A DNA stretch of 50,791 nucleotides from Anaerolineae bacterium. Its GTDB lineage: Bacteria; Chloroflexota; Anaerolineae; S140-20. The position numbers and the translations under genes were made by a program. The stretch lies in NCBI GenBank assembly GCA_027021705.1, contig JALUTT010000050.1, forward strand, positions 1-50,791, read 5' to 3'. Within the stretch, counting starts at the first letter, position 1, and each line of letters begins with the position of its first letter. The notes under the pieces are model-generated. The model was not told where the DNA came from and searched no databases. It worked only from the letters and a program-made list of their open reading frames with translations. Below are positions 2,183 through 47,745 of this stretch, piece after piece.

Positions 2183-2276
2183 CCCTCCCGCAGGCCCGGC
2201 GGGCGTCGGCGGCGGGCGCAAGGAGGGAGATAGGGCGATGAAGGGGAAGGCCAACGGCGAGGGGCCTGCGGGAGGG
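2183..2276. repeat. Solo inverted doublet CCCTCCCGCAGG...CCTGCGGGAGGG (94 bp) between convergent genes
   Basis: Arms at 2183-2194 and 2265-2276 are identical to those in the tandem array and the MITEs. Confidence 0.8.
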
Positions 2277-2325
2277 GGGTGGGGCGGAAGAACGCACCGG
2301 CCTGGAGAGCCGGTGCGGGAGGGTC

Positions 2326-4713
2326 TCACCGGAGGATCCAAAGGCGGAGGCGGAGCGCCCGCCAGGCAGCCCACGCTTCCTCGCGCCGGAGCGTGCCGGG
2401 CGCCGGACCGGCGTAGCGCACGCGGACGTAGAGCTCCGTCAGCCGCCGGAGGGCGGCCGTGGCCTCGGCCGCCTGCTCTTGCCACCAGGCCCGGCGCCAC
2501 CGCCGGCGGGCTGCCCCCTGCTGGAGCCGATGGGCCAGGCGGGCGGCGTATTCGGCCGGCGTCATCCCCGCCTGGGGGGGCACCCCCAGCCGCGCCCCCT
2601 GTCGCTGGAGCTGACCGTAGAGGCGGACGACCAGGTCCGGGGCGGGGAGGGCCAGGAGCCGCCGTTGACGCCGCCGCCACCAGAGCCCACCCAGCCCCCC
2701 CAGCGCCAGCAGCCCGCCCAGCCAGAGCCCATAGCGAAGCGGGGAGGCGGCCGCCCTCGGACGGGGGCGGGGGGGCAGGGGCAGGTCCGGCATCCCCTCC
2801 TCCTCCCGCTCCGGCGGGGTCGTGTCGGCTGCCGGCTCGCCCGATGGGCGCTCCAGCGGGGGGCGGCCGGCCGTGGGCTCGAAGATGACCCAGCCCAGGC
2901 CGGGGAAGTAGACCTCGGGCCAGGAGTGGGCCTCCGCCTCGGTCACCAGCCACCGGCCGGTCTCCGGGTCGTAGCGGCCCGGCGCGTACCCCACCCCCAG
3001 ACGGGCCGGCAGCCCCACCGCCCGGGCCATCACCACGAAGGCGGTGGCGTAGTAGTCGCAGTAGCCGGCCTCCGCCTCGAAGAGGAAGTAGTCGGCCACA
3101 TCCCGGCCCGGCGGGGGCGGCGGGATGTCGAGGGAGTAGGGGTAGGTGCGCAGGAACCGCTCCAGCCGCCGGGCCCGGTCGTAGGGGGTCGTCGCCCCCT
3201 CCACCACCTGCCGGGCCAGGGCAACGACCCGGTCGGGGAGGCCCTTTGGCAACTGCCGGTAGCGCTCCAGCCCCTCCTCGGGCGCGGCGGGGGCCCGCCG
3301 CAGCGCGGCCACCGTGACCGTCGGAACCCACGAGGTGACGGTGTACTGCGTCGTCGGCTCCAAGGCCCACATCTGGGCCGGGTCCTGGGAGGTGTAGCGC
3401 CGAAGCCGCACGGGCCGGTCCACCCGGATCGGCCGGGGGGCGGCGTAGAGGAGGTCGGTGGGCGGACCCAGCCGGGTCACCCGCTGGACCAGGAGCGGCG
3501 GACGGGCGGAGGGCGGGGTGGGCAGCAGGGGCTCGTCGGCCGCCAGCACCACCTCGTCGGCGGCCGTCTGCTCCCAGCCCAATCCCGTGTAGCGGTCGTA
3601 GACGGTGCCCCGCCAGTAGTGGGGGGTTGGGTCGTCGGTCTGCACCTCCATCACCCGCCGGCGGCTCAGCTCCGGCCCGCTGCCCAGCAGGTGGATGCGG
3701 GGCAGGACGCCGGCCCCGCTGACCGGTCGGCCCGGCCCCTGACCGGCGCCGGTCCCGGCTCTACCTCCGCCGCTCACGCCGGCGAAAGCCCGGTCCAGTG
3801 TCTCCCCCAGGCGGCGCACCGGGCCGGCGGCCACGTCCTGGGCCCAGCGCCCCACGGTGGGCGAGGTCAGCAGGGCGACCAGGACGGCGACCACCAGCGA
3901 GGCCCCCGCGACGGCGGCGGCGTTGATCCCCACCTCAAAGCCGATCTCCGTGGAGTAGTCCACCCCCCGCCGCGCCCAGTCCTCCTCCTGGCGGACCGTC
4001 GTCCCCCGGGCCAGGAGGAGGGGGAAGAGGGCCAGGTAGAGGAGGAGGTAGAGGAGCCCCTTCTCCCCCGCCAGGTAGGTGTGGAGCGTCAGGGCCAGGC
4101 CGATGGGGAAGAGGGTGGCGAAGTCCTGGCCCCAGGGGGGAGCCGGCCCGTCGCCGCCGGGAGAGGTGATCCGGCGCTCCTCCCGCCCGGTGTAGAAGAA
4201 GGCCCGGGCGGTGTAGGCGGCGAGGGTCCAGGTGAGCAGCGAGAGCCAGAAGATGAAGACCTGGTTGTCTCGGCTCTGCCCGCCGGCCAGGATGACGGTC
4301 TCGAACCAGGCGACCAGCCGCTGCCCGAAGAAGAGGGAGCGGAGCAGGAGGTCGGTGAGTAGTTCGGTGGGGGGGAGGCGACCCTGAAGGGCCTCGCCCA
4401 GGGCGGCCCAGCCGGGGAGGAGCTGCCCGCCGCTGTTGGCGCTCACGCCGATCCCCAGGGGGAGGAGCAGCGGCCAGGCCCGGCGGCTCCGCCAGCCGGC
4501 CCGCCCCACCCAGCGCCCCACCAGGAAGGCGAGCAGGGCGGTGGGGAGCAGGCCGCCGTCGCCCCGGCGCACCCAGTGGGCCTCGACAACGGCGGCGGGG
4601 AAGCAGAGGACCAGGGCGATCAGCAGCCCGAAGGTGGCCCATCCTTCGGCGGGCTGCCACCGGCGGAGCAAGCGCCAGAGCGGGCTTTCGGGAGGTTGGG
4701 GAGGGTAGACCAT
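2326..4713 (-). CDS. Membrane transglutaminase-like protein (TgpA/DUF3488 + transglutaminase + DUF4129-like)
   Basis: Multiple TM helices; motifs YWRGTVYDRYTG, GYCDYYATAFVVMARAVGLPARLGVGY and AHSWPEVYFPGLGWVIFEPT. Confidence 0.9.
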   Translation of the reverse strand: MVYPPQPPESPLWRLLRRWQPAEGWATFGLLIALVLCFPAAVVEAHWVRRGDGGLLPTALLAFLVGRWVGRAGWRSRRAWPLLLPLGIGVSANSGGQLLPGWAALGEALQGRLPPTELLTDLLLRSLFFGQRLVAWFETVILAGGQSRDNQVFIFWLSLLTWTLAAYTARAFFYTGREERRITSPGGDGPAPPWGQDFATLFPIGLALTLHTYLAGEKGLLYLLLYLALFPLLLARGTTVRQEEDWARRGVDYSTEIGFEVGINAAAVAGASLVVAVLVALLTSPTVGRWAQDVAAGPVRRLGETLDRAFAGVSGGGRAGTGAGQGPGRPVSGAGVLPRIHLLGSGPELSRRRVMEVQTDDPTPHYWRGTVYDRYTGLGWEQTAADEVVLAADEPLLPTPPSARPPLLVQRVTRLGPPTDLLYAAPRPIRVDRPVRLRRYTSQDPAQMWALEPTTQYTVTSWVPTVTVAALRRAPAAPEEGLERYRQLPKGLPDRVVALARQVVEGATTPYDRARRLERFLRTYPYSLDIPPPPPGRDVADYFLFEAEAGYCDYYATAFVVMARAVGLPARLGVGYAPGRYDPETGRWLVTEAEAHSWPEVYFPGLGWVIFEPTAGRPPLERPSGEPAADTTPPEREEEGMPDLPLPPRPRPRAAASPLRYGLWLGGLLALGGLGGLWWRRRQRRLLALPAPDLVVRLYGQLQRQGARLGVPPQAGMTPAEYAARLAHRLQQGAARRRWRRAWWQEQAAEATAALRRLTELYVRVRYAGPAPGTLRREEAWAAWRALRLRLWILR

Positions 4714-4742
4714 GTCACGTTACCATCGGCAGGCGCTTAGGA

Positions 4743-4890
4743 ATGAGGCACCGAGGGATGAGGCGCTGGGAACTGCCGACCGCCGACCGCCGACGGCCGA
4801 CCGCCGACCGCGGACTGAGGACTGAGGACTACGGACGGCGGACCGCCGACCGCGGACTGAGGACTACGGACCGAGGACTGCGGACTGCGC
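4743..4890 (-). repeat. Composite short tandem repeats (CCGCCGA, GGACTGA, GGATGAGG units) in an intergenic space
   Basis: Runs such as ccgaccgccgaccgccga and ggactgaggactgaggac. Confidence 0.85.
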
Positions 4891-4899
4891 ACCACGTGA

Positions 4900-6252
4900 C
4901 TACTCCCCCACCATCGCCGGCCGGCGCAGTGTGATCACCCGGCCCGTGCCCAGCACCTTGAAGGCCCATCGCCGCCGGGGGCCAAGCACGGGGCGCGGTT
5001 CGGCCAAATCCCCCCGGCGGATGACCTGACTGACGATCCCCTGGTCGGCCAGGAGGCCCCGCAGGGGCTCCGCCTCCCCATCCCCGCCGAAGGAGGCCGG
5101 GTCCAGCAGCCAGGCCGCTGCCCCCATCCCGCGCCGCCTCAGGCGGGCCAGGGGGAGGAGCCAATCCCCTCCCACGTCGGGCGTGACGATGAGGGCGGTC
5201 ATCCCGCTCGGTCGCCCCCGCCCCACCTCGTCCAGCAGGGCGGCGAGGGGGACGGGGGAGAGGTCGAGGGGGGCCAGGGCGGCCAGGATGGCCCAGAGGT
5301 GGCCCCGCCCCCGGGCCGGCCGGACCACCCGGCGGTGGGGGCCGTAGGTCCAGAGCCCCACGGCCCGCCCCTGGTCCAGCAGGTGGGCGGCCAGGGAGGC
5401 GACCAGGATGATGGCGTATTCAGCCGTCGCCTCTTCGTCGTGGCCGGCCTGCACCGCCCGGTGGAGGTCCAGCAGGAGCCAGACGTCGCCCGTCGTCTCC
5501 TGGTCGAACTCCCGCACCAGCAGGTCGCCCCGGTGGGCGGTCTGGGGCCAGTGGATGTGGCGCATCGGGTCGCCGGGGGTGTAGGGGCGGACGGAGCGGG
5601 CGTTGACCGTCGGCTCCCAGGCCCGGCGGCTGGTGTGGGCCTGACCGACCGTCCCACCTCGGGGCAGGACGACGGGGGGGAGGGAGGTGATGGGCGGGTA
5701 GACGAGGAGGGTGAGGGCCTGGTCATAGACCTGACGGACGGTGAAGAGGCCGAAGGGGTCTCCCGTCCAGAGCTCCCAGGGGCCCAGGGTGAACTCACCC
5801 CGCCGGCGGCAGACCCCCTCGCTGCGCCAGCGGGTGACCACCCCGGCGTCGGCGGCGCGGGCCGAGCTGATGGTGTAGCCGGGCAGCGTGGAGAAATCCC
5901 GCACCTCGACCCAGAGGGCGGGGAAGGAGGTGGTGTTGACCAGGGCCAGCCGTTCTTCCAGCGCGTCCCCCACCTGGACCCAGGTGGAGCGGAGGTGGCG
6001 CTCCATCCAGAGCCCCCGGCTCAGGGCCAGGCTCCAGCGGTAGGCGAGGAGAAGCAGCAGGGCGAGGGTGACCAGCACCACCAGCCAGACGCGGGAGGGG
6101 AGCAGGCCCATCAGCAGGACCAGCCCTCCCAGCGCGAGGGGGGGGAGGCGTCGGTTGAGGAAGAGGGTGACCCGGCGGCGGGGGCTGCCGGGGGAGGCGT
6201 CGTGCACCTCCTGCCGGAGCACCCAAGGGCCGGACCAGCGTGGAATGGGCAT
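4900..6252 (-). CDS. DUF58 domain protein
   Basis: Motifs RRGEFTLGP, DPFGLF, VRPYTPGDPMRHIHW and LLVREFD; AGGAGA RBS before the ATG. Confidence 0.9.
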   Translation of the reverse strand: MPIPRWSGPWVLRQEVHDASPGSPRRRVTLFLNRRLPPLALGGLVLLMGLLPSRVWLVVLVTLALLLLLAYRWSLALSRGLWMERHLRSTWVQVGDALEERLALVNTTSFPALWVEVRDFSTLPGYTISSARAADAGVVTRWRSEGVCRRRGEFTLGPWELWTGDPFGLFTVRQVYDQALTLLVYPPITSLPPVVLPRGGTVGQAHTSRRAWEPTVNARSVRPYTPGDPMRHIHWPQTAHRGDLLVREFDQETTGDVWLLLDLHRAVQAGHDEEATAEYAIILVASLAAHLLDQGRAVGLWTYGPHRRVVRPARGRGHLWAILAALAPLDLSPVPLAALLDEVGRGRPSGMTALIVTPDVGGDWLLPLARLRRRGMGAAAWLLDPASFGGDGEAEPLRGLLADQGIVSQVIRRGDLAEPRPVLGPRRRWAFKVLGTGRVITLRRPAMVGE

Positions 6253-6339
6253 ACCGCTTCTCCTAGGGCGGGGGATGATCGCCTTCGTGGCCTTGCGTCT
6301 CTGCCGTGGCCCCTGTCGGGGGCGTCCTCCGCCCGAAGA

Positions 6340-6368
6340 ATTCTAGCACAGTTCCCCTTATGCGTCAC
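6340..6368 (-). promoter_or_regulatory. Putative sigma70 promoter for the DUF58-transglutaminase operon
   Basis: GTGACG-17bp-TAGAAT with extended TG; the -35 lies in the first partial array unit. Confidence 0.4.
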
Positions 6369-7952
6369 CCTCCCGCCGGGCACAAGGTGCCCGGCGATGG
6401 CAACGGCTTCCCGGCTAACCCCCTCCCGCCGGGCACAAGGTGCTCGGTGATGGCAACGGCTTACCGGCATCGGCCTACGACGCGCTTTAGGCCGTGGGAA
6501 GGACCTGCGGGAGGGTTCCCCCTAATCCCCCTCCCGCAGGTCCCAAGGTGCCCGGCGACGGCAGCGGTCTACCGGCATCGGCCTACGACGCGCTTTGGGC
6601 CGTGGGAAGGACCTGCGGGAGGGTTCCCCCCCTGCATCCCCCTCCCGCAGGTCCCAAGGTGCCCGACGATAGCAACGGCTTATCGGCAGCGGCCTACAAC
6701 GCACTTTAGGCCGTGGGAAGGACCTGCGGGAGGGTTCCCCCTGCATCCCCCTCCCGCAGGTCCCAAGGTGCTCGGCGATGGCAACGGCTTATCGGCAGCG
6801 GCCTACGACGCGCTTGAGGCCGTGGGAAGGACCTGCGGGAGGGTTCCCCCTGCATCCCCCTCCCGCAGGTCCCAAGGTACTCGGCAATGGCAACGGTTTA
6901 TCGGCAGCGGCCTACAACGCGCTTTAGGCCGTGGGAAGGACCTGCGGGAGGGTTCCCCCCCGGTGATGGCAACGACTTCCCGGCATCGGCCTACGACGCG
7001 CTTGAGGCCGTGGGAAGGACCTGCGGGAGGGTTCCCCCTCTGCATCACCCTCCCGCCGGGCACCTTGTGCCCGGCGATGACGACGGCTTCCCGGCAGCGA
7101 CCTACGACACGCTTGAGGCCGTGGGAAGGACCTGCGGGAGGGTTCCCCCTAGTCACCCTCCCGCAGGTCCCAAGGTGCCCGGTGATGGCAACGGCTCACC
7201 GGCAGCGACCCACAATGCGCTTTAGGCCGTGGGAAGGACTTGCGGGAGGGTTCCCCCTGCATCACCCTCCCGCCGGGCACAAGGTGCCCGGCGATGGCAG
7301 CGGCTTCCCGGCAGCGACCCACAACGCGCTTTAGGCCGTGGATAGGACCTGCGGGAGGGTTCCCTCCGCGATGGCAACGGCTTCCCGGCAGCGGCCTACA
7401 ACGCGCTTTAGGCCGTGGGAGGGACCTGCGGGAGGGTTCCCCCTGCATCCCCCTCCCGCAGGTCCCAAGGTGCCCGCCGATGGCAACAGCTTCCCGGCAG
7501 CGGCCTACGACGCGCTTGAGGCCGTGGGAAGGACCTGCGGGAGGGTTCCCCCTGATCACTGACCCTCCCGCAGGTCCCAAGGTACTCGGCAATGGCAACG
7601 GTTTATCGGCGGCGGCCTACAACGCGCTTTAGGCCGTGGGCAGGACCTGCGGGAGGGTTCCCCCCGCGATGGCAACGGCTTATCGGCAGCGGCCTACGAC
7701 GCGCTTGAGGCCGTGGGAAGGACCTGCGGGAGGGTTCCCCCTGCATCACCCTCCCGCCGGGCACAAGGTGCCCGGCGATGGCAGCGGCTTCCCGGCAGCG
7801 ACCCACAACGCGCTTTAGGCCGTGGATAGGACCTGCGGGAGGGTTCCCCCTGCATCCCCCTCCCGCAGGTCCCAAGGTGCCCGGCGATGGCAACGGCTTA
7901 TCGGCAGCGGCCTACGACGCGCTTGAGGCCGTGGGAAGGACCTGCGGGAGGG
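6363..7952. repeat. Tandem array of 15 palindromic units (about 109 bp full, 77-79 bp short) plus a partial first unit
   Basis: Right arm (g)acctgcgggaggg ends near 6515, 6623, 6734, 6843, 6952, 7031, 7142, 7250, 7359, 7436, 7545, 7657, 7734, 7843 and 7952; no unique spacers. Confidence 0.95.
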
Positions 7953-7968
7953 AGAAGGCATAGGTCCC

Positions 7969-7997
7969 TTGACATTTTCGGCCATCTCCTGCAAAAT
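7969..7997 (+). promoter_or_regulatory. sigma70-type promoter of the glycosyltransferase
   Basis: TTGACA-17bp-CAAAAT immediately after the array. Confidence 0.6.
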
Positions 7998-8085
7998 GGG
8001 AAGTCAGAGGCAACGACGTTGGAGTGATGGGGGCGGCGGAAGAGGCCCCCTGATCCTATCGGTTCACGCACAGGAGAGGGCAACG

Positions 8086-9432
8086 ATGCGAGTGGCGCTG
8101 GTTTCACTGCAGTACCGGGAGACGACGACGGGCGGCGGCGGCGTCCACGTGGGCAAGGTGGCGGAGAACCTGGTCGCCCTGGGGCACAGGGTGACGGTTC
8201 TGTCCATCCACACCACGGGAACGCTGGCGGCGGCCGGCACCCTACAGGACGGGGACCATCCCTTCAGCGTGGAGGAGCGGGAGGGGGTGACCTTGGTCCG
8301 CTTCCTGATCGAGGAGGGGATCCAAGGGCCTTACGAGGGGACCAAGCACGAAGAGCTGGAGCGGATCCACCAGTTCTGCCGGGTGGTGCGGGACTGGCTG
8401 GTCCGGCGGCAAGGGGATTTCGACGTGGTGCACCTGCACGGCCACCACCTGATCCCCGGCTGGCTGGCCCGGGAGCTTCAGCCCTACCCCTTCGTCGTCG
8501 TCTCCACCGTCCACTACCTGGAGTCCACGCTGGTCCGGGCGACGCGGGAGGGGCTGATCCACTACCACATCTCCAACGCCGACCTGGTGCGGATGAAGCA
8601 GTGGGAGGCGATGTCCCGCTACGCCGACGGCCTGGTGCTGATCAGCCCGGGGATGGTGCAGGACTTCATCGAGCTGTTGCTGGAGCTGCGTTTGGACCCG
8701 GCGACGGTGATGCCCCCCTACCGGATCATCTCCAGCGGCATTGACGGTGACAGCATCCTGCCGGCCGAGGCGGTCCAGGCCCGTCTTGCCTCCCCGCCGG
8801 ACCGGGTCGAGGTGGTGACCTTCGCCCGGCTGGACCCCAGCAAGGGGATCGAGTACGCCATCCGGGCGGCGGCGGTGGCTGCCCAGGAGACGAGTCGCCC
8901 CTTCCGCCTGACGGTGGCCGGCATCCCCCTGCCGGAGTACATGCCCATCCTGGAGGCCGAGGCGGCGAAGGCCCGCGCCCACGTGCCGGTGGAGCTCATC
9001 GCTTTTCAGCGCATCTTCTCCCCCCAGGAGCGGGATCAGTTCCTGGCCCGCTTTCAGCTCTACCTCTTCCCCTCCCTGCGCGAGCCCTTCGGCATCACCA
9101 TCGTCGAGGCGGGGGCCCGGGGGCTGATGGTGGTCAGCACCGATGCGGTGGGACCCCGCTACATCCTGGGCGAGGACGGGGGGAAGACGACCGACTGGGG
9201 GATCATCGCCCCTCGGGGGGTGATGGGCAAGCGGACCCAGGACCCCGGGGCGCATCTGGCCCACAACCTGGGGAGGGCCCTGGCCTACGCCCTGGAGGAC
9301 TGGGAGGGAGGGCTTCGCCGGGCGATGGCGCTGCGGGACCACGTAGAGGCTACCTACACCTGGCGCAAGGTGACCGAAGCCTACCTGGACCTCTACCGGC
9401 AGGGGAAGCGGACCGTCCACGAGCCCCTGTGA
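8086..9432 (+). CDS. Glycosyltransferase family 4 (GT-B)
   Basis: MRVALVS...GGGGVHV, FDVVHLHG, FARLDPSKG, FPSLREPFGITIVEAGARG; RBS GGAGAGG before the ATG at 8086. Confidence 0.9.
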   Translation: MRVALVSLQYRETTTGGGGVHVGKVAENLVALGHRVTVLSIHTTGTLAAAGTLQDGDHPFSVEEREGVTLVRFLIEEGIQGPYEGTKHEELERIHQFCRVVRDWLVRRQGDFDVVHLHGHHLIPGWLARELQPYPFVVVSTVHYLESTLVRATREGLIHYHISNADLVRMKQWEAMSRYADGLVLISPGMVQDFIELLLELRLDPATVMPPYRIISSGIDGDSILPAEAVQARLASPPDRVEVVTFARLDPSKGIEYAIRAAAVAAQETSRPFRLTVAGIPLPEYMPILEAEAAKARAHVPVELIAFQRIFSPQERDQFLARFQLYLFPSLREPFGITIVEAGARGLMVVSTDAVGPRYILGEDGGKTTDWGIIAPRGVMGKRTQDPGAHLAHNLGRALAYALEDWEGGLRRAMALRDHVEATYTWRKVTEAYLDLYRQGKRTVHEPL

Positions 9433-9433
9433 G

Positions 9434-9462
9434 TTGCACGAACAGGGCGATTCGGGTATAAT
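9434..9462 (+). promoter_or_regulatory. sigma70 promoter
   Basis: TTGCAC-17bp-TATAAT. Confidence 0.7.
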
Positions 9463-9499
9463 CCGGCCCGCAGAACTCACCGCTACACGTTGGGCAAGG

Positions 9500-9621
9500 G
9501 TAACTGTTCACCCTCCCGCAGGTTAGGCGCGTTTCCGACGCGAAACCGTGCTTCAAACAGCCCATCGGGGCCGAAAGCGCCCTCGACCGGTGACCTGCGG
9601 GAGGGTAGGCTGAATAGATAC
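9500..9621 (+). mobile_element. MITE copy 1 (IS66-like ends, 8-bp TSD)
   Basis: Ends GTAACTGTTCA...TGAATAGATAC, flanked by the direct repeat GGGCAAGG (9492-9499 and 9622-9629). Confidence 0.85.
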
Positions 9622-9642
9622 GGGCAAGGAGCGGACCTCTCT

Positions 9643-10269
9643 ATGGCCGATCTGATACAAACGATCAGCAACATCATCCTCATCTTCCTCGCCTTCTTGG
9701 GGGCTTTCCTGGCCGCCCTCTGGCTGGGCCTGGTGATCTGGACCTTTCGAGACATTCGCTCTCGCTCGCGGGACTTCTTTGCCTGGATCCTGGCCTCGTT
9801 GCTGGTGGCCATCCTGAACCTGCCTGGGCTGCTCATCTACCTGATGCTCCGTCCCCAGGAGACGCTGGCCGAGGCCTACGAGCGGTCCCTGGAGGAGGAG
9901 GCGCTGCTCCAGGAGATCGAGGAGCAGGAGCTCTGTCCCGGCTGCGGCCAGCGGGTGGAGTCCGAGTGGATCATCTGCCCCTACTGTCGCACCAGCCTGA
10001 AGAAGACTTGCCTCCACTGCGGTCGTCCCTTGCAACTCAACTGGACCATCTGCCCCTACTGTGGGACGGTGGACCGGCCGGCGATGGGCGTGGCGGCGAC
10101 GGTCTCCGCCAAGGCGGCCACGGTGGGGGAGGGCGACGAGCGGAAGGTCGCCGCTCCGGTGGCCGGCGCACCGACCGAGGAGGAGCCGGAGCCCGACGAG
10201 CGGGGACCGGCCTCCGAACCCCCTCCGCCCCGCACCGTTCCAACGGTCTACGACGCTTCCGTGGAGTAG
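9643..10269 (+). CDS. Membrane-anchored double zinc ribbon protein
   Basis: N-terminal TM helices, then CPGC, CPYC, CLHC and CPYC; the ORF extension to 9490 is MITE sequence. Confidence 0.85.
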   Translation: MADLIQTISNIILIFLAFLGAFLAALWLGLVIWTFRDIRSRSRDFFAWILASLLVAILNLPGLLIYLMLRPQETLAEAYERSLEEEALLQEIEEQELCPGCGQRVESEWIICPYCRTSLKKTCLHCGRPLQLNWTICPYCGTVDRPAMGVAATVSAKAATVGEGDERKVAAPVAGAPTEEEPEPDERGPASEPPPPRTVPTVYDASVE

Positions 10270-10273
10270 TTCG

Positions 10274-10303
10274 AAGCCCGGCCCCATCAGGAGCCGGGCT
10301 TTT
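10274..10303 (+). terminator. Rho-independent terminator
   Basis: aagcccggc...gccgggctt stem followed by a T-run. Confidence 0.65.
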
Positions 10304-10305
10304 CA

Positions 10306-10410
10306 CCTCCCTCCTCATCCCCTCATTCCCTTGGTGCCTCATCCCTTCATTCCCTCATCCCCTCATCCCTCCACAGACTGAGGACCGAGGACTACGGACC
10401 GCGGACCGAC
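10306..10410. repeat. Short tandem repeats (CCTCATCC octamers, GGACYGA heptamers) between convergent genes
   Basis: cctcatcccctcattccc...; gactgaggaccgaggactacggaccgcggaccga. Confidence 0.8.
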
Positions 10411-11456
10411 CTCCCCCGACGCACGGCGACGATCTCGGCGATGATGGCGACGGCGATCTCCTCCGGCCCCTGAGCGCCCAGGTCCAGTCCGATGGGAGCG
10501 TGGATGCGGGCGATGGCCTCCTCGCTCACCCCCATCTGCCGGAGGGCTTCGACGCGGCGGGCGTGGGTCTTGCGGGAGCCCAGGGCCCCTACGTAGCGGG
10601 CCGGGCTCTCCAGGGCCAGCTTCAGGGCGGGGTTGTCCAGCTTCTCATCGTGGCTGAGCACCACCACGTAGGTCGCCTCGTCCAAGCCGATCTCCGCCAG
10701 GGCCTCCGTCGGCCACTTGACGATCAGGGCATCGGCGTGGGGGAAACGCTCACGGGTGGCGAAGGCGGCGCGGGCGTCCACGACGAAGGTGCGGAAGCCC
10801 AGGGCCTTGGCGAAGGTGACCAGGGGGATGGCGATCTGCACCGCGCCCACAACGACCAGCTTGGGCGGCGGGGGGTAGATGTCCAGGAAGAGCTCGACGG
10901 TCTCGTCGCCCACGGGGAAGGTGACCCGCTCCGGGCGCTGGGCGGCCAGGAGGGCGCGGGCGTGGTGCAAGACCCGGGCCTCCAGGTCGGGGGGAGGCAG
11001 CGCCCCTTGCTTTCTGCCGTCGGGCCAGATCAGCAGCCGCCGTCCCAGGCCCGGCCCGGCGATCACCGTGGCCAGGGCGACCAGTTCCTCCCGCTCCAGG
11101 GCCTCCCGGAGGGCGTCGTAGAGGGCCTCGCCCGGCTCCCCCGGCCCGACCAGGGGCTCTACAAAGACCTCGATGGTGCCCCCGCAGGCCAGCCCGACCT
11201 CCCAGGCCCGCTCGTCGGGGATGCCGAAGGTGAGCCGCCTAGGCCGGCCCGTTCGGAGCACCTCCAGCGCTTCCTCGAGGACGGCCCCCTCGACGCAGCC
11301 GCCGCTGACGGAGCCGATCATCTCGCCGGCCGAGGAGACGGCCATCTTCGCCCCCAGGGGCTGGGGGGCGGAGCCGTAGACCCGGATCAGCGTCGCCAGG
11401 GCGACCCGTTTCCCTTCTCTCCGCCAGTGCTCTATCGTTGCCAGGAGCTGTCGCAT
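10392..11456 (-). CDS. xdhC: XdhC/CoxI family molybdenum hydroxylase accessory protein
   Basis: GSAPQPLGAKM, GSVSGGCVE, GLACGGTIEVFVEP, YVGALGSRK, IHAPIGLDLGA. Confidence 0.9.
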   Translation of the reverse strand: MRQLLATIEHWRREGKRVALATLIRVYGSAPQPLGAKMAVSSAGEMIGSVSGGCVEGAVLEEALEVLRTGRPRRLTFGIPDERAWEVGLACGGTIEVFVEPLVGPGEPGEALYDALREALEREELVALATVIAGPGLGRRLLIWPDGRKQGALPPPDLEARVLHHARALLAAQRPERVTFPVGDETVELFLDIYPPPPKLVVVGAVQIAIPLVTFAKALGFRTFVVDARAAFATRERFPHADALIVKWPTEALAEIGLDEATYVVVLSHDEKLDNPALKLALESPARYVGALGSRKTHARRVEALRQMGVSEEAIARIHAPIGLDLGAQGPEEIAVAIIAEIVAVRRGRSVRGP

Positions 11457-11517
11457 AGTCCTTTTGGCGGTTGGCCGCCGGCGGCTGACCGCCGACCGCC
11501 GAGGGGGAGCGGTTTCG

Positions 11518-12108
11518 TCAGGGGGCGAGCCGCTGGAACAGGTACCAGTAAGAGGGGTGCCCTCGTTCCTCGCCGGCCCGGATCCAGAGGGGGTGGAACG
11601 CCTCGCCCAGCAGCTCCTGCATCGCCTCCGGCGTCAGCCCCATCGGACGGCCGCGCATCGTCCTCGGTCCCCAGGCGTAGAGCAGGTAGAAGCCCCCCAT
11701 CCGCAGCACCCGGCGCAGCATCGCCACGTAGGCGGGCCGGTCCGAGGGCTCCAGGCCGTGGAAGCAGCCGATGTCCAGGGCCAGGTCGAACGGGCCGCCG
11801 ATGGGCGGCCCCTGGGGCGTCCCCAGCTTCAGGATGTCCCCCCGGTGGAAGGAGACGGCCACGCCCGCCCGGCGGGCTTTGCGCCGGGCTCGGCGGATGG
11901 CCAGCCGGGCCACGTCCACGCCCACCACCTGGAAGCCGTGCCGGGCCAGGTAGATGGCGTTCGTCCCCGTCCCACAGCCGATGTCCAAGGCCCGGCCTGG
12001 GGGGACCTGGCCGCTCTCGACCACCTCAACGACCTCCGGCGGTGTGATGCCGGTGTCCCAGGGGGGTGTGCCTAGCAGGTAGAGGAGTTCCCAGAGGATT
12101 GGATGCAT
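11518..12108 (-). CDS. Class I SAM-dependent methyltransferase (TPMT-like)
   Basis: PPWDTG, RALDIGCGTG, FDLALDIGCFH; RBS AGGAGG. Confidence 0.9.
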   Translation of the reverse strand: MHPILWELLYLLGTPPWDTGITPPEVVEVVESGQVPPGRALDIGCGTGTNAIYLARHGFQVVGVDVARLAIRRARRKARRAGVAVSFHRGDILKLGTPQGPPIGGPFDLALDIGCFHGLEPSDRPAYVAMLRRVLRMGGFYLLYAWGPRTMRGRPMGLTPEAMQELLGEAFHPLWIRAGEERGHPSYWYLFQRLAP

Positions 12109-12119
12109 CGTGCCTCCTG

Positions 12120-12213
12120 ACGACCGACCGCCGGCAGCGGACCGCCGGCAGTGGACCGCCGACCACCGACAGCGGACCGCCGATCACGGACTGAGGACTG
12201 AGGACCGAGGACT
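12120..12213 (-). repeat. Composite heptamer repeats (CCGCCGA, GGACTGA) in an intergenic space
   Basis: Same units as 4743-4890; a shorter run also lies at about 11470-11502. Confidence 0.8.
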
Positions 12214-12216
12214 TCA

Positions 12217-13377
12217 TCATACGACGTTGTACTCGACGATCTTCTCTCCCCGGCGGAAGCGGTCAATGCGCAGGGGGGTGATGTCAACGGTGTGGGCAGC
12301 GCCGTCCAGGATCTCCTCGGCCAGGAGGAGGCCGGCGATGGGGCCGTGCATGAAGCCGTGGCCGCTGAAGCCGTTGATGCAGTAGAAGCCCTCGACCTCG
12401 GGAACCCGGCCCAGGATGGGATGGGCGTCGGGGGAGACCTCGTAGAGACCGGCCCAGTGGCTGAGGATGCCCGCCTTCTCCAGCAGCGGGAGCCGCTTCA
12501 TCGCCGCCTCCAGGTGGACCAGCTCCCACGCCTCGTCCACGCTCTGGTCGAAGCCGGGGGGCTCGTTGGGATTGGACATGCCGGTGAGCAGTCCCTCCCC
12601 CTCTCGGTGAAAGTAGAGGGCTTGGGCGAAGTCTATGACGAAGGGGAAGTCGGGGGGGATCTCGGGGAGGGGGGTGGTGACGACGATCTGACGGCGGACG
12701 GGCTCGACGGGAACCTCGACGCCGGCCATCGCACCGACCACCTTGGCCCAGGGGCCGGCGGCGTTGACCACGTTGGGGGTGGCGATCTCCCCCCGGTCGG
12801 TGACGACGCCCCGCACGCGCCCCCCTTCGACGCGGATGTCGGTGACGGTCACGTCGGTGAAGAGCTTTGCGCCCAACCGCCGGGCCTGGGTGACGTAGCC
12901 CTGGACGACGCCGTTGGGGTCGGCGAGCCCGTCTTTGGCGTGGAAGGTGGCGGCCAGGAGGTCGTCGAGGCGCATCATCGGCAGACGGCGGCGCACCTCA
13001 TCGGCCTCCAGCCACTCGGTCATCACGCCCATCCGGTGCTGGAGGGCCACGTTGCGCCGGAACTGGGCCACGTCTTCCTCACGGGTGAGCAGGAAGAGGT
13101 AGCCGCAGAAGCGCAGGTCAATGGGCTGCCCCATCTCCTCCTCGAAGCGCTCCAGCATCGGGAGGCTGTGCAGGGAGAGGCGGATGTTGATCTCGGTGGC
13201 GAACTGGTAGCGGATGCCGCCGGCGCACTTGCCGGTGGCCTGGGTGCCGAAGAAGGGCTCTCGTTCCAGCAGGACCACGTCGGGGCATCCCTTGGCGGCC
13301 AGGTGGTAGGCGGTGCTCACCCCCATCACCCCACCTCCCACGATGACGACCTCTGCAGTGGCCGGTAGCGTGCTCAT
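12217..13377 (-). CDS. FAD-dependent oxidoreductase, DAO/sarcosine oxidase beta family
   Basis: VVIVGGGVMG, VVNAAGPW, WAGLYEVSPDAHPILG, GFSGHGFMHGP. Confidence 0.9.
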   Translation of the reverse strand: MSTLPATAEVVIVGGGVMGVSTAYHLAAKGCPDVVLLEREPFFGTQATGKCAGGIRYQFATEINIRLSLHSLPMLERFEEEMGQPIDLRFCGYLFLLTREEDVAQFRRNVALQHRMGVMTEWLEADEVRRRLPMMRLDDLLAATFHAKDGLADPNGVVQGYVTQARRLGAKLFTDVTVTDIRVEGGRVRGVVTDRGEIATPNVVNAAGPWAKVVGAMAGVEVPVEPVRRQIVVTTPLPEIPPDFPFVIDFAQALYFHREGEGLLTGMSNPNEPPGFDQSVDEAWELVHLEAAMKRLPLLEKAGILSHWAGLYEVSPDAHPILGRVPEVEGFYCINGFSGHGFMHGPIAGLLLAEEILDGAAHTVDITPLRIDRFRRGEKIVEYNVV

Positions 13378-13405
13378 GGGTGGGTTCCTCCCATCTCTCC
13401 GTTTG

Positions 13406-13487
13406 TCACAAGAATTCCACGTGATTTCGCATATCCTTGGGCTCCAGTACTTGATGGATCAGCGTAAAATTTAATCTTCCCGGCCAC
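13406..13487 (-). pseudogene. DUF5615-like PIN toxin remnant with a large internal deletion
   Basis: GTG-AGKIKFYAD overlaps the DUF433 3' end and is joined out of frame at GCTGAT to LIHQVLEPKDMRNHVEFL-stop; these resemble the two ends of that family. Confidence 0.7.
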
Positions 13488-13785
13488 GCAATTTCTCCAT
13501 CAGTTTGGAAGGAGTCACCCTGCGCAGTTCTTCTACGAAGGATTGGTCTGCTCGAATAGATTCGTCAATCTCGGCACGGTGATCGTAGTAGTAAGCCAGC
13601 GCAGCGTACACGTCCGCCAACGTGATGTCATGTTCTGCGGCGATCTCATCGGCGCTGAGCCCCATGAACTCGTGCCAGATGACGATGTTTTGCACAGTAA
13701 TACGGTGGCCGGCGATGCGTGGCTTGCCGCCAGCCACGCCCGGGCTTACCACGATGTGGCGATCCAACACGGTCTCGGCTGTCAT
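13471..13785 (-). CDS. DUF433 domain putative antitoxin
   Basis: PGVAGGKPRIAGHRITV, ADVYAALAYYYDH; RBS AAGGAGG. Confidence 0.9.
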   Translation of the reverse strand: MTAETVLDRHIVVSPGVAGGKPRIAGHRITVQNIVIWHEFMGLSADEIAAEHDITLADVYAALAYYYDHRAEIDESIRADQSFVEELRRVTPSKLMEKLRGRED

Positions 13786-13836
13786 TCGATCCTCCTTGGC
13801 GTTGCCCCATATGTTCCACACAGACGGAACGGCGGC

Positions 13837-14154
13837 TCACTGCAACTTTTTCCCCCTCGTTTTGATCTCCCACGCCAGCGGATGTTCGTCGCAAAATTCC
13901 TCCGGTCGGAAGCGCACGACTTCAATCCGCGGATCACTGTTCAGTAGCGCAGTCACGAGCTTTTGATGGTCCTCTAGCCAGTTGCCGGTGAAATCCTTCG
14001 AGATCAGAGCCACGTCAATGTCGCTGTCAGGCCGGGCCGTCCCTTCCGCGTGGGAACCGTACAGATAGGCCGAGGTTAGACGCACACCAGAGCTTTCGAC
14101 TTGCTTTAGGAAATAGTTGACCGCCCTTAGGATGTCACCATCTTCTCGACCCAT
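13837..14154 (-). CDS. Minimal nucleotidyltransferase (MNT antitoxin-like)
   Basis: YLYGSHAEGTARPDSDIDVALIS; about 105 aa from the ATG at 14154. Confidence 0.85.
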   Translation of the reverse strand: MGREDGDILRAVNYFLKQVESSGVRLTSAYLYGSHAEGTARPDSDIDVALISKDFTGNWLEDHQKLVTALLNSDPRIEVVRFRPEEFCDEHPLAWEIKTRGKKLQ

Positions 14155-14219
14155 TTTCCAAACTCCTTGATCGCTTTCAGTTCTGATGCACAGAACTGCC
14201 GGGTGCACTGGCGTTTGAA
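14127..14219 (-). pseudogene. C-terminal remnant of a probable HEPN partner gene
   Basis: FKRQCTRQFCASELKAIKEFGKWVEKMVTS-stop overlaps the MNT start, as in HEPN-MNT pairs; the upstream sequence is unrelated. Confidence 0.5.
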
Positions 14220-14287
14220 CGGTGAATCGCCCTGGAACAGCCTGCCTCGGTAGGCTTCCCTGGCCCAGCCTAGTTGCCGAGAGTGGC

Positions 14288-15058: not shown

Positions 15059-15059
15059 T

Positions 15060-16553: not shown

Positions 16554-16569
16554 CGGATGCCTTGGGAGA

Positions 16570-17669
<1,100 letters not shown>

Positions 17670-17673
<4 letters not shown>

Positions 17674-20600: not shown

Positions 20601-21065
20601 CCGGTAGTCCTGACAAAGGAGGAAGCCGGCCGTCAGCCCTAGCAGCCCTCCTTCAAAGGGCTGAAAGATGCGCGAGCTGTCCAGCCCTCCCTGCACCAGC
20701 CCGCTGAGCACACCCAACACCATAGCGGGGCCGGCCCCTAGCCGGACGCCGGCGAGCATCAGCAGAGGACCGATCAGGAGGGGGATCCCGATGGGGCGGG
20801 GGATGATGGGCAGGTCGGGAGGCGTGAGGCCGTCGGGGATGGGAAAGCGCAACCAGAAGAGGTTGCTCAGGAGAACGGTTGCTCCCAGAAAGAAAGCCCC
20901 CTCGACCCAGTGTTGGCGGTTCAGGGAACGGAAATCCCGCCGGCGGAGGTAGAAGGAGATGAACAGAGCAACCAGGTAGACGGATAGCAGCAGGTAGCCT
21001 TCTGGTCGTAGTACCGTGAGGTCGAAGTAGGGAACGCCCCAGCGTCCTGACCAATCAAACCCCAT
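17670..21065 (-). CDS. Membrane sensor histidine kinase (multi-TM, Cache-like, HAMP, GAF, PAS, HisKA, HATPase)
   Basis: DEVGQLGKAF, AVAIENARLF, KSEFVATVSHDLRAPLT, NLVENAIKYT, DTGIGI, GSGLGLAIVK. Confidence 0.95.
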
Positions 21066-21118
21066 ACACGGTTGCTCCCCTGGTCACGTCCCGCGCCAGA
21101 CATTCGGAAGAAACGGAT

Positions 21119-21233
21119 TTCAGCCTACCCTCCCGCAGGTCACCGGTCGAGGGCGCTTTCAACCCCGATGGGCTATTTGAAGCACGGTTTCGCGTTGGAA
21201 ACGCACCTAACCTGCGGGAGGGTGAAGAGTTAT
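21119..21233 (-). mobile_element. MITE copy 2 (degenerate ends, no clear TSD)
   Basis: Reverse complement of copy 1 with a near-identical 95-bp core. Confidence 0.8.
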
Positions 21234-21237
21234 TTTC

Positions 21238-21266: not shown

Positions 21267-21283
21267 TAAGGCTGCCGTGGCCC

Positions 21284-21312: not shown

Positions 21313-21324
21313 ACCTCCGACTGT

Positions 21325-21402: not shown

Positions 21403-21409
21403 AACTCCG

Positions 21410-23671: not shown

Positions 23672-23790
23672 GTACCGTTCACCCTCCCGCAGGTTAGGCG
23701 CGTTTCCGACGCGAAACCGTGCTTCAAATAGCCCAGGGACTGAAGGTGCCCTCGACCGGTGACCTGCGAGAGGGTAGGCTGAATAGATAC
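23672..23790 (+). mobile_element. MITE copy 3 (8-bp TSD)
   Basis: GTACCGTTCA...TGAATAGATAC flanked by CGTTCCGC (23664-23671 and 23791-23798). Confidence 0.85.
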
Positions 23791-24069: not shown

Positions 24070-24177
24070 GTAGCTGTTCACCCTCCCGCAGGTTAGGCGC
24101 GTTTTCGACGCGAAACCGTGTCGGGGATGAGAGCGCCCTCGACCGGTGACCTGCGGGAGGGTGGGCTGAATAGATAC
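24070..24177 (+). mobile_element. MITE copy 4 (internal deletion of about 14 bp; TSD 7/8 match)
   Basis: GTAGCTGTTCA...TGAATAGATAC flanked by AAGCCTTC and AAGCTTTC. Confidence 0.85.
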
Positions 24178-37100: not shown

Positions 37101-40100
37101 TTGGGGGGAAGAGACCTTCCTAAGGGGCTGGAGAGGCTGGTGCTGGCAGGGCTGGTGCTCGCCTTGTTGGCACCGGTTCTGGTCCGGCCCAATGGCTATC
37201 TCTACATCCCCCAAGCTCCCTACTCAGACCTGACGGTCACCCACTGGCCCAACGCGCTCTTCTTGCGGCGAGCGCTGGTTGAGGCCGGTCAGCTCCCCTT
37301 CTGGCGGCCCACGGTGATGGGGGGGACGCCCTTCCTGGCCAATCCGGTGAGCGGGCTTTTCTACCCGCCTCTGTGGCTGCCGGTGTTGCTTCCCCCCGCC
37401 CTGGGCTTCAACCTGCTGGCCCTGGGCCACCTGCTTCTGGCTGGTCTGGCCGCTTACGCGCTCCTGCGCCGGGGGTGGCGCCTGGGGCGGATGGGGGCGC
37501 TGGTGGGGGGGCTCGTCTACGGGGCCTCCCCCAAGCTGCTGGCCCATCTGGGCGCCGGTCACGTCGGCTGGGTCGGGGCCTGGGCCTGGGCTCCCCTCGT
37601 CCTGTTGGCCGTCATCCGGGCTGCGGCCTCGCACCGCCGGACGGCGGCGGTGCGGGCGGGAGCGCTGCTGGGCCTCGTCTTCCTGGCCGATCTTCGCCTC
37701 ACCGTCTACCTGACCATCGCTGCCCTGACCCTATGGGTCGCTGAGGCGGTGAGGCGGCGGGCCGACGGCTCCTCGCGCCGGTGGGCCCACGGCCTGGGGA
37801 TTGCCCTTTTCCTCCTCACGGCGGCCCTCCTCACGGCGGTCCAGTGGCTCCCGCTTCTGGCCGTCCTGGGGGAGACGACCCGCAGCGGGCTGACGCCAGC
37901 CGAAGCAGCCCGTTTCTCCCTTCCTCCGGCTCGTCTCCTCGGCCTCCTGGTGGCCGGCTCCGGGGGAAACCACGAGTGGGTCATCTACCTGGGGCTCCCC
38001 ACGCTTCCTTTGGCCGCTCTGGGGCTCTGGGCAGGCCGCCGGCGGGGCGAGAAAGCCCGCTGGGATTGGGCAGTGGGGATGGCCGCGGTCGGGGGACTCC
38101 TCGCCCTGGGCAGCTACACCCCTCTCTTCCCCCTGCTGCTCCGGTTGGTGCCGGGCTTTTCCCTGCTGCGGGTGCCGGCCCGGGGGTGGTTCCTCGTCGT
38201 CCTGGGCGTGGCCCTGCTGGCGGGTTGGGGAGCCGATGCTCTGGCCTCGGGCGAGGCGGCCCGGCTTCCCCGACGAATCCGCTCCGGGCTCAACCTGGCG
38301 ATGGTTGGCTTCGGCGGCCTGACCCTCTTCCTGGCGGTGGGAGCCGGGTTGGTGAGCGGAGCGCTTCCGACCAACCTGTTGGCCCTCGCCTTCCTGGGAC
38401 CGCTGACGGCTGGCTTGCTGATAGTCGCTTGGCGACCGGAGACCCGTTTCCCCGCCACACCCCTCCTGATTCTCCTCCTGGTCGTTGACCTCTGGATCAT
38501 GGGCCACCGCCTCGTCGAGGTCCGTTCGGAGGCTCAGGTCTTCGCCGCTGGTGCGCAGGCGGCCGACTGGCTGGCCGCCCAGCCCGGCCCCTTCCGCGTC
38601 TACTCCCCCAGCTACAGCCTGCCCCAGCACGTGGTCGTCCGGGCTGGCCTTTCGCTGGCCGATGGGGTAGACCCCTTCCAGTTGACCCGCTACGTCCGCC
38701 TGATGGAGCGGGCCGGCGGGTACGGTCCCTCTGGCTACAGCGTCACCATCCCCCCCTTTCCCGAAGGGACCGAGGTGACGACAGCTCACCGAGAGACGGT
38801 ACCCGACGCCCGGCTGCTGGGTGTGCTCAACGTCCGCTACCTGGCTGCTGCCTTTCCCATCCGAGGGGAGGGGCTGCGGGCGGTCGGCCCGCCGTTGGAT
38901 GGTGTCTACCTCTACGAGAACGTGTGGGCGCTCCCCCGGGCCTTCGTCGTCGGGCGGGTGACGTCGGTGGACTCCCTAGAGGAGGCGCTGGCCTGGCTGG
39001 ACGATCACGATCCAGCTCGGGAAGCGGTTGTGGAGGGCGGACCGGCACGGGAAGGGCCGCCGGGAGTGCGGGCGGCCACACTCTTGCGCTTCACCCCCAA
39101 CCGGGTCGTCGTCGAGGCCGTCGGCCCCGGCCTCCTGGTCCTGGCCGATCCCTGGTCGGCCGGCTGGCGAGCGACGGTAGGTGGCGAGCCGGTTCCTGTC
39201 TACCCCACCGATGCGGCCTTGCGGGGGGTCTACCTGCCGCCTGGTTCACATCGGGTGGTCTTCACCTACAGGCCCCCCGGCCTCTTCCCCGGCTTGGCGC
39301 TTTCCCTCCTGGCCCTTCTTTTGGTCGCGTGGTCAGGTGGTCGGGTGGTCGGGTGGTCGGGTGGTCACGTGGTCGCTTGGTCAGGTGGTCGTTTGGTCGC
39401 TTGGTCCTTGTTCCTTGCCCCTTGCCCCTTGCCCCTTGCCTCTCGGTCCTCAGTCCTCAGTCCGTGGTCGGCGGTCGGTGGTCGGCGGTCGGCCACCCCC
39501 TCGGTGCCTCATCCCTCAGTGCCTCATCCCTCCGCGTCTCCCCCCCCAGCGCCCCATCCCTCCGAACAACGCTGGCTTGCCCTCTGGATCATTGTGGCCC
39601 TGCTCCTTACCAGCCTCCCTTACCTGCTGGGCTGGGCCCTTAGCGGGCCGGATATGGTCTTCGACGGCTTCGTCTTCAACATCGAGGATATGCACGCCTA
39701 CCTCTCCCGAATGGGGCAGGGGGCACGGGGGGCTTGGCTTGTCCGGATCGCCTACACGCCGGAGCCCCATCAGGGGGTGCTTCTCTTCCTGTTCTACGTG
39801 CTCCTGGGGAAGGTGGCTGCCGGGACAGGGCTTTCCTTGGTTGCGGTCTTTCACCTGGCCCGGCTGATCTGCGGGGCGTTGATGCTGGGAGTGACCTATC
39901 GTTTCCTGGCCGCGCTGACCGGGTCCATCGCGGTGCGTCGTCTGGCGTTTTTGCTGATCACCTTCGGCGGAGGGCTGGGCTGGCTGCTGATCCTGGCGGG
40001 GCGGGGGGAGTGGCTGGGCAGCCTGCCCCTAGACATGCTGCTGCCAGAGGGGTTTGCTTTCCTCACCCTCTACGCGCTACCTCACCTGGCGATGGCGCGG

Positions 40101-47482: not shown

Positions 47483-47527
47483 AGCGTTCTTCTCCACCCT
47501 CCCCCCGATCCCATTTTACCCACGGCT

Positions 47528-47566
47528 CTGTTGCCCTTGTGTTACCAGAGTGTAAAGTTTCTGTGA
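47528..47566. promoter_or_regulatory. Four 11-bp-phased TGT boxes (OmpR/PhoB-family-like site)
   Basis: ctgttg, gtgtta, gtgtaa, ctgtga at 47528, 47539, 47550, 47561. Confidence 0.6.
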
Positions 47567-47627
47567 AGGGTCCCGCCGGGAGCAGCCCTCTCCGTTCAAC
47601 CCGCTCCCCCCAATCCGTTTCGGAGCG

Positions 47628-47745
47628 GTATCTATTCAGCCTACCCTCCCGCAGGTCACCGGTCGAGGGCGCTTTCAGCCCCGATGGGCTCTTTGAAGCA
47701 CGGTTTCGCGTCGGAAACGCGCCTAACCTGCGGGAGGGTGGACAC
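47628..47745 (-). mobile_element. MITE copy 5 (8-bp TSD)
   Basis: Reverse-complement copy flanked by TCGGAGCG (47620-47627 and 47746-47753). Confidence 0.85.

Follow-up and report, generated by a model that had tools for sequence, protein, structure and literature searches.

Arm-bounded elements in the window and its source genome

We analysed a 50,791-nucleotide contig of an Anaerolineae bacterium (JALUTT010000050.1, assembly GCA_027021705.1), hereafter the window, which carries a family of intergenic elements bounded by two inverted arms whose outer edges lie about 95 bp apart. Each arm is a copy of the 12-mer CCCTCCCGCAGG, which was found 43 times in the window at no more than one mismatch against 2.4 expected, a count reached by none of 100 shuffled sequences. 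An earlier note on this DNA had likened the element to a doublet of two inverted repetitive extragenic palindromic (REP) sequences. This reading was given up, since the 12-mer is not self-complementary, neither arm alone is a palindrome, and the two arms form one hairpin stem.

The elements belong to three families, A, B and C, according to their inner sequences. An unstranded 94-bp solo copy of family A, a putative long-loop REP element, occupies 2183..2276 with exact arms at 2183 and 2265; it begins 6 bp past the stop codon of an open frame ending at 2177, its inner sequence resembles by eye the array on contig C176 and the copies on contig C34, and neither an outer inverted repeat nor a target duplication was seen around it. 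An unstranded tandem array of putative family-B long-loop units covers 6368..7952 and holds 28 arms at no more than one mismatch. Its main period of 109 bp consists of a 95-bp core and a 13-14-nt linker such as TTCCCCCTGCATCC/A, and some units of 77-79 bp have no left arm. A minus-strand frame that starts at 6252 and a plus-strand frame whose start lies near 7969 enclose the array, and a promoter-like box stands at each of its edges.

Family C is present in the window as MITEs (miniature inverted-repeat transposable elements). The 122-bp MITE at 9500..9621 (plus strand) consists of GTAACTGTTCA, the 95-bp core and TAGGCTGAATAGATAC, and is flanked by the 8-bp duplication GGGCAAGG at 9492-9499 and 9622-9629. 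The copy at 21112..21233 lies in reverse orientation (minus strand) about 90 bp upstream of a tRNA gene at 21325-21399; its outer ends are decayed and no duplication could be recognised. The copy at 23672..23790 (plus) has a 93-bp core, the right arm CCTGCGAGAGGG and the duplication CGTTCCGC on both sides, and the copy at 24070..24177 (plus) has a 14-bp internal deletion, which leaves a core of 81 bp, and the duplication AAGCCTTC / AAGCTTTC, alike at 7 of 8 positions. At 47628..47745 (reverse orientation, minus), the short outer end is cut to 7 nt and the duplication TCGGAGCG stands on both sides. The spans quoted in the earlier note were all correct, namely 94 bp at 2183-2276, 95 bp at 6529-6623, 9511-9605, 21128-21222 and 47644-47738, 93 bp at 23682-23774 (right arm with one mismatch) and 81 bp in the deleted copy at 24081-24161.

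Contigs of four public sequencing runs were compared over positions 7960-26500 for insertion polymorphism. Loose contig ends were found at 9500 and 9621/9622 in runs X3, X4 and X5, with many different flanks stopping there. Run X4 carries the MITE at 9500-9621, while in runs X2 and X3 the sequence seems to continue from about 9491 straight to 9622, lacking the MITE and one copy of the duplication.

The assembly from which the window comes (G000, hereafter the source genome) comprises 5.19 Mb in 183 contigs, has 66% G+C and is 94.9% complete. It contains the exact arm 337 times in the forward and 337 times in the reverse orientation. Pairing forward arms with the next reverse arm less than 400 bp away gave 250 pairs, 234 of which span 81-96 bp. 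The genome-wide peak near 95 bp, named beforehand as a check, was present: 179 of the 250 pairs span exactly 95 bp, followed by 94 bp (29), 93 bp (13), 92 bp (9), 96 bp (3) and 81 bp (1). Short forms numbered only nine, most of them deletion products, and the dominant form is 92-96 bp; a 49-bp deletion form was found at two loci (C18:40498 and C70:8782). The inner sequences of the 234 pairs clustered into groups of 116 (family C), 109 (family B) and 3, plus six singletons, one of which is the solo copy of the window. Inner-only nhmmer profiles recovered 179 near-full copies of C and 149 of B in the source genome and showed no mutual match (best E 0.26), so the description of three barely related inner sequences holds.

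The inner parts diverge by 18.5% on average in family B and by 3.9% in family C. The arms are far less diverged, at 1.7% in family B (about ten times less than its inner part) and at 1.6% in family C, whose true termini diverge by 13-16%. Variants private to one copy were equally frequent in the arms and in the inner part of both families. Together, these values indicate a constraint on what propagates and not on the resident copies.

Most family-C copies are uniform MITEs: 70 of the 84 full copies are 122 bp long, and 60 of the 84 have target duplications matching at 7-8 of 8 positions (37 perfect, 23 at 7/8). When the comparison was shifted outward by 8 nt as a control, none of the 84 copies had flanks matching at 7-8 positions. 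Copies of family B stand alone, form the core of a MITE of about 152 bp, carry a further outer repeat AGCTACCTGACC, or are joined in arrays. The MITE, termed B1, has ends beginning with AGGGCTTTTCA and 9-bp duplications, and the first ~26 nt of about 11 intact B1 copies are also found in a MITE family of the same genome that has no core. Family A comprises the C176 array plus solo copies. About a dozen arrays with at least five arms were found in the source genome, all of family B or A; every one repeats the core plus a small number of adjoining bases, with linkers that vary from array to array. We infer that family C is young and that families B and A are older and diverged.

Several other interpretations of the elements were rejected. 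An invertible segment was discarded, as all 60 listed of 116 oriented copies had the interior in one and the same orientation with respect to the short and the long outer end. The core of an integron attC site is GTTRRRY, and GTTAGGC in family C fits it; judged by eye, the other families do not, no cassettes are present, and the conserved part is the whole 12-mer. The 95-bp form is not a decayed pair of short hairpins either, with a best inner mismatch of 5.3 against 5.2 in shuffled sequences (102 elements); one true pair of short hairpins, 91 bp long, at locus L028 was the exception. Arms occurred at 4 of 366 contig ends of the source genome, all by chance or in coding sequence; this is no enrichment, and thus nothing pointed to an unassembled element that ends in arms. 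The pairs of arms separated by 2498 and 2500 bp (C144, C84) proved to be unrelated half-elements around ordinary genes and not an autonomous element.

Distribution and RAYT genes flanked by the arm hairpin

One genome per species was scanned, with exact arms required and spans of 84-109 bp allowed, which gave at least 108 loci. The matches listed contained 110 elements spanning 85-107 bp, 86 of them at 93-97 bp, and 99 of the 110 lie in Anaerolineae or other Chloroflexota assemblies. The inner profiles of families B and C found no significant match among the 110 (best E 0.043). The other 11 elements belong to a different repeat of Sphingomonadales, a hairpin with a 9-bp stem (CCCTCCCGC-AG-GCGGGAGGG) that happens to contain the 12-mer. 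These hairpins stand in inverted pairs 96-107 bp apart (L018, L039, L041, L047, L052, L058, L059, L065, L075, L086 and L102) and look like a separate family resembling REPINs (REP doublets forming hairpins).

In a class sample of 401 Anaerolineae genomes drawn evenly from 216 genera, the exact doublet was found in 29 genomes and 25 genera. The source genome had by far the most copies (233), and none of its three family relatives had any. Genome G077 holds 37 arm pairs with 83-300 nt between the arms, most of which form one family spanning 110-127 bp (about 35 copies), and in genome G026 the arms also occur in arrays of 32-bp hairpins (two arms and an 8-nt gap). Most of the compared genomes are draft bins from metagenomes, a kind of assembly in which repeats and insertion sequences come out poorly. 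In a Chloroflexota metagenome-assembled genome (L070, 201-294), ~35 bp of host sequence is directly duplicated on the two sides of an arm core, which may be the first step of a tandem array.

Y1-transposase loci were collected from five arm-rich genomes, and 1 of the 20 was flanked by arm elements. This locus (L162, contig C235 of G026) encodes a 192-aa protein, with arm cores 9 nt before the gene start and 4 nt after the stop. The protein aligned with the NCBIfam model REP_Tyr_transpos (NF047646) at 79.5 bits (E 2e-22, positions 5-146 of 146) and with the Pfam model Y1_Tnp (PF01797) at 40.6 bits (cut-off 23), which points to a REP-associated tyrosine transposase (RAYT). Beside the gene, two short overlapping frames of 85 and 73 aa (L162 1091-1562) look by eye like a toxin-antitoxin pair of the HicB/HicA type.

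With the L162 protein as the query, homologues at E <= 1e-10 were found in 142 of the 401 genomes, and 30 RAYT loci were fetched. At nine of them the arm hairpin lies 1-51 nt from both gene ends, with at most one arm mismatch at L162, L171-L176 and L183 and no more than two at L177. The nine RAYTs are the eight closest proteins (71-100% identity) plus one at 57%. The next proteins, L178 and L179 (66% and 64% identity), carry the compensatory stem pair CCCTCCCGGAGG/CCTCCGGGAGGG, L180 (63%) carries CGTCCCGAAGG.. and L181 (60%) carries CCCTTCCGAAGG. Of the 13 loci at 60% identity or more, 12 thus have the arm or a co-varying derivative; at the other 17 RAYT loci (51-60% identity), the arm was not found near the gene. 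Seven of eight distant RAYTs examined carry their own, different perfect hairpins with stems of 13-17 bp. Both the linkage of RAYT and hairpin and their co-variation were observed directly in these relatives, and a stem that co-varies with RAYT divergence is what marks a REP and its RAYT as these are described in PMC8266576. On these sequence comparisons, the arms are 12 bases of a predicted REP stem of about 14 bp, (A)CCCTCCCGCAGGTT - loop - AACCTGCGGGAGGG(T).

Of eight aligned full-length RAYT proteins, most or all retain the HUH motif (NHYHF) and the tyrosine region RYIHLNPV (column identity of at least 70%; one protein has THYH and one YVH). The commonest form flanking RAYT genes is a 29-33-nt hairpin, usually of 31-32 nt, with a gap of 7-8 nt between the 12-mers, and exact short hairpins are also dispersed in the RAYT-bearing genomes (33 in G062, 38 in G016, 19 in G038, 9 in G267 and 3 in G391). 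The long-loop form of 93-96 bp flanks the RAYT in three genomes, G026, G037 and G079.

The earlier note had stated that no cognate protein is encoded in the window, which is correct, and the source genome holds only a remnant of one. The sole arm-clade homologue found there by tblastn with the L162 protein, at C34:9885-10043, covers the last 53 aa at 62% identity. The remnant amounts to the last 53-59 codons of a RAYT gene and is followed by a degenerate arm and by a family-A core at 10107-10198. Upstream of it there is a faint DDE_Tnp_1 match of 16 bits (cut-off 23), insufficient to name the truncating agent.

Two other matches to the L162 protein in the source genome come from a different, third RAYT-like gene split between contigs (C175:1-130 and C105:1-280), which has its own hairpin GGTGCGACGCAC..GTGCGTCGCACC. 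The Y1 genes on C14 and C49 were rejected as cognate enzymes, as no arm (at no more than one mismatch) lies within 3 kb and other repeat arrays flank them. Directly upstream of the C14 gene, which scores as IS200-like (81 bits) and falls below the cut-off as a RAYT, is a 13-copy tandem array with a 109-bp period and a different hairpin ..GAAGCCCGCTTCGCGGGCTT.. (C14:14609-16070; L001 1-1461). The equal 109-bp period of this array and that of the window looks coincidental.

Proposed MITE packaging and the IS66 link

Insertion sequences (IS) of the IS66 family are marked by ends starting with GTAA and by an 8-bp target duplication. Many relatives contain autonomous IS66-family elements of 1.5-1.6 kb with the termini GTAACTrCTCAGsCw, 8-bp duplications and one transposase gene, and their proteins match NF033517 at 311 and 288 bits. 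They represent the single-ORF (open reading frame) type of IS66, which we take to be the ISBst12 group. The termini of family C (GTAACTGTTCA / GTATCTATTCAGCCTA) correspond to those of the autonomous elements. GTAACT-type ends were present on both sides of 36 of the 99 listed arm elements of other genomes, and 26 of the 36 had 8-bp duplications matching at 7-8 of 8 positions. The proposal that one subfamily had acquired IS66-type ends was thus borne out by the GTAAC... termini, the 8-bp duplications (both observed directly) and the autonomous elements in relatives.

The arm itself (at no more than one mismatch) was found at none of 31 IS66-family transposase loci obtained from two protein searches. 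The earlier note had advised looking for motif-flanked RAYT or IS66 transposase genes, and such genes were found in relatives for RAYT and, at the 31 loci, not for IS66. Quite different outer inverted repeats enclose other arm elements; in other Anaerolineae, five or more further outer-end types were found, each at one to three loci. The absence of the arm from the 31 loci and the variety of the outer repeats indicate that the arm is a module of several MITE types and not a transposase end.

IS66-type MITEs were present in 79 of the 401 genomes, mostly with unrelated interiors. In G074, G378, G162, G177, G086 and G157 they share a different sub-terminal hairpin, GTCATTGCGAG...GAAGCAATC; the arm is thus not the sole module of this sort. 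An IS66 DDE fragment on the 1.4-kb contig C134 of the source genome was rejected as a partner, since it has no arms and tblastn revealed no likeness to the single-ORF transposase of Anaerolineae; it may come from a contaminant or from a different IS66 branch.

Proposed explanation, alternatives and known systems

We consider it likely, from the comparisons above, that the arms are the stem of a REP cognate to one Anaerolineae RAYT clade and that its long-loop form was captured by DDE-type MITEs and arrays. In the source genome, whose RAYT remnant was seen directly, the hairpin family outlives its own broken RAYT gene. The mechanism set out here, including binding, cutting, the order of events and the reason why the loop stays near 67 nt, is deduced from sequence. 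The RAYT would bind the folded single-stranded hairpin through its stem sequence and would cut and rejoin the DNA beside it, as enzymes of E. coli, Stenotrophomonas and Marinomonas have been shown to do (PMC8266576). Such action would spread copies without target duplications and pile up tandem copies. In some lineages the loop may have grown to about 67 nt, giving the long-loop form of 92-96 bp. This form would have been packaged between IS66-family ends (the 122-bp MITE of family C, with 8-bp duplications) and in a second MITE type (the ~152-bp B1, with 9-bp duplications). Families B and A and the arrays would then be relics of RAYT-era spread and local tandem amplification, and the young family C may still move by a DDE transposase supplied in trans.

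Five observations weigh against this explanation. The L162 protein scores 0.5 bit under the NCBIfam cut-off of 80. A GTAG tag is a defining feature of most described REPs, and it is missing beside the short RAYT-flanking hairpins, which have TGAC, TTAGG or TTGTG instead; GGGAGG-GTAG appears only in IS66-type MITEs and in the arrays of G026. Where the 95-bp form is most abundant, in G145, G077, G330 and G035, no arm-clade RAYT was found (the best matches in the first three have E 9e-11, 46% and 47% identity, and G035 has none at E <= 1e-10), so high copy number goes with DDE packaging and not with the RAYT. The source assembly holds neither an intact arm-clade RAYT nor a matching IS66 transposase, and current mobility therefore rests on donors not seen. 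Finally, three unalignable inner families have kept 92-96 bp, for which the explanation does not account; shared descent with saturated substitutions, or a mild length constraint, are possible reasons for a span near 92-97 bp.

The same constancy of span is an argument for a protein that measures both arm sequence and spacing, with about 95 bp being functionally required. Besides the three inner families of the source genome, it is favoured by the 93-97-bp mode elsewhere, where most interiors have no significant match to B or C, and by the inner parts, which showed no consistent extra structure when 23 elements were folded against loop-shuffled controls (z +0.6 to -3.8). We nevertheless consider such a ruler unlikely. 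The form most often seen beside RAYT genes is the short hairpin with a 7-8-nt gap, which also lies dispersed in tens of copies, the G077 family spans 110-127 bp, the 49-bp deletion form occurs at two loci, and the scan behind the 93-97-bp mode allowed only 84-109 bp. The suggestion that a protein recognises the arm sequence and the distance therefore stands in its first half, with the RAYT as the very likely protein in view of the flanking hairpins and compensatory stems, and is not supported in its second.

According to a further alternative, the arms are the inner part of a long terminal repeat in an IS66 MITE lineage and are bound by the IS66 transposase, and their proximity to RAYT genes reflects repeat clustering. 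In its favour are the 36 of 99 listed elements with GTAACT ends on both sides (26 of the 36 duplicated), the scarcity of arm-clade RAYTs in the genomes with the most 95-bp copies, and two IS right ends (L113 and L143) that read ..GCAG[A/G]A[A/G]GG followed by TAGGTAGTTAC and so come close in sequence to the arm plus outer end. In both, the transposase gene ends inside the right terminal repeat (L113 2400-2448, ..GCAGAAAGGTAGGTAGTTAC; L143 2790-2828, ..GCAGGAGGGTAGGTAGTTAC). This stretch resembles the right arm plus the MITE outer end, and homology and chance are both possible. We rate this alternative as improbable. None of the 31 transposase loci carries the arm, and the likeness at L113 and L143 reaches only ~8 of 11 positions in the arm-like part. 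Short arm hairpins flank RAYTs and are dispersed without GTAAC ends, the stem co-varies with the RAYT and not with IS ends, most IS66-type MITEs in the 79 genomes have unrelated interiors, and the same core lies inside MITEs with other termini and 9-bp duplications.

Exaptation as host features (structured RNAs, mRNA stabilisers or nucleoid-protein sites, as reported for the bacterial interspersed mosaic elements of E. coli), to which the intergenic position, the array between two divergent promoter-like boxes and such roles in the REP literature lend some colour, is very improbable, because only tRNA reached the gathering score of Rfam 15 over the window (best sub-threshold E over 2100-9700, 7.6 kb, 0.32), the stem is strand-symmetric, the interior lacks conservation, arms and interior have private variants at equal frequency, and the distribution is patchy (29 of 401 genomes, none of three in the same family).

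The explanation by a REP stem and its RAYT places the system close to the group 3 REPtrons of Stenotrophomonas maltophilia and Marinomonas (REPtron Mb; PMC8266576, PMC3333891). As there, a Y1/HUH gene, here that of the arm-clade RAYT, is bordered on both sides by its own palindrome, the palindromes are perfect and have loops of 3-4 nt, copies lie scattered in intergenic positions and have multiplied close to the gene, and the stem specificity varies by RAYT lineage. The arm stem, of ~14 bp, exceeds the 8-10 bp of the group 3 models in PMC8266576. Unlike REPtrons, the arm family has no evident GTAG by its short copies, a 92-96-bp derivative dominates in some genomes, and the RAYT of the source genome is only a remnant. 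REPtron Sm tolerates a mutated tag in binding, and REPtron Mb in cleavage (PMC8266576).

The REPINs of Pseudomonas fluorescens SBW25 (PMC3116915) share with the arm family a hairpin unit, tandem clusters that repeat the element with its flanks, and a RAYT link; their sharp next-neighbour peaks lie at 71 and 110 bp against 95 bp here. A REPIN consists of two inverted REPs that are each palindromic, whereas the arm family has one stem, in which an inner second arm pair was not found, and part of the family moves, unlike REPINs, as DDE-type MITEs with target duplications. Single-ORF IS66 elements have GTAAC...GTTAC-type inverted repeats and 8-bp duplications in common with family C, but the conserved arms are absent from their ends, and the arm is better conserved than the true termini. 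The GTAG/CGTC families of PMC3733652 are likewise stem-loops with 6-13-bp stems and variable loops that form dimers and groups; their loops reach 27 bp, and GTAG repeats are recorded in the phylum Chloroflexi. The arm family differs in its loop of ~67 nt and in a tag that is not consistently GTAG or CGTC; compared by text description only, it may be identical to one of the families of that paper.

A literature search with the motif string gave no bacterial-repeat paper among the matches listed, and one combining Anaerolineae with 'repetitive extragenic palindromic' found no paper. A long-loop derivative, packaging in DDE-type MITEs and hundreds of copies beside a dead RAYT were not found in the literature searched. 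The system belongs to the known REP/RAYT kind and is not a strict REPIN. The earlier idea of an undescribed REPIN-like family is thus right about the REP/REPIN-like nature and wrong about the kind, as this is one lineage of a known kind.

REP/RAYT pairs are usually described as closed and vertically inherited, and DDE-type MITEs as a separate world. It is possible, though doubtful, that the long-loop REP is a dual-mobility module, whose stem and ~67-nt loop give a carrier MITE an advantage, so that repeated capture was selected. If true, such a module, served by a RAYT (a domesticated HUH enzyme) and carried by MITEs of the IS66 type, of the type marked by 9-bp duplications and of five or more further terminal types, reaches hundreds of copies in genomes with a dead RAYT. 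One REP stem can be followed here in four settings: in short hairpins next to an intact RAYT, in the long-loop form, as the core of an IS66-type MITE, and in arrays of a RAYT-decayed genome. This is a concrete case in which to ask how populations of REPs persist once their enzyme is lost, and whether transposition systems trade hairpins with one another. The graded series of RAYTs with compensatory stem changes is a data set for mapping the residues that read the stem, and for annotation, several hundred intergenic repeats of the source genome are explained.

Other repeats were also seen in the window. Tandem 7- and 8-nt repeats fill the spacers at 4772-4889, 10313-10370 and 39322-39562. At position 10381, the X2 and X3 contigs contain an extra 21 nt (three heptamer units), and the copy number thus varies between runs. 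A 126-bp unit stands in three repeats of 95% identity at 26590-26967.

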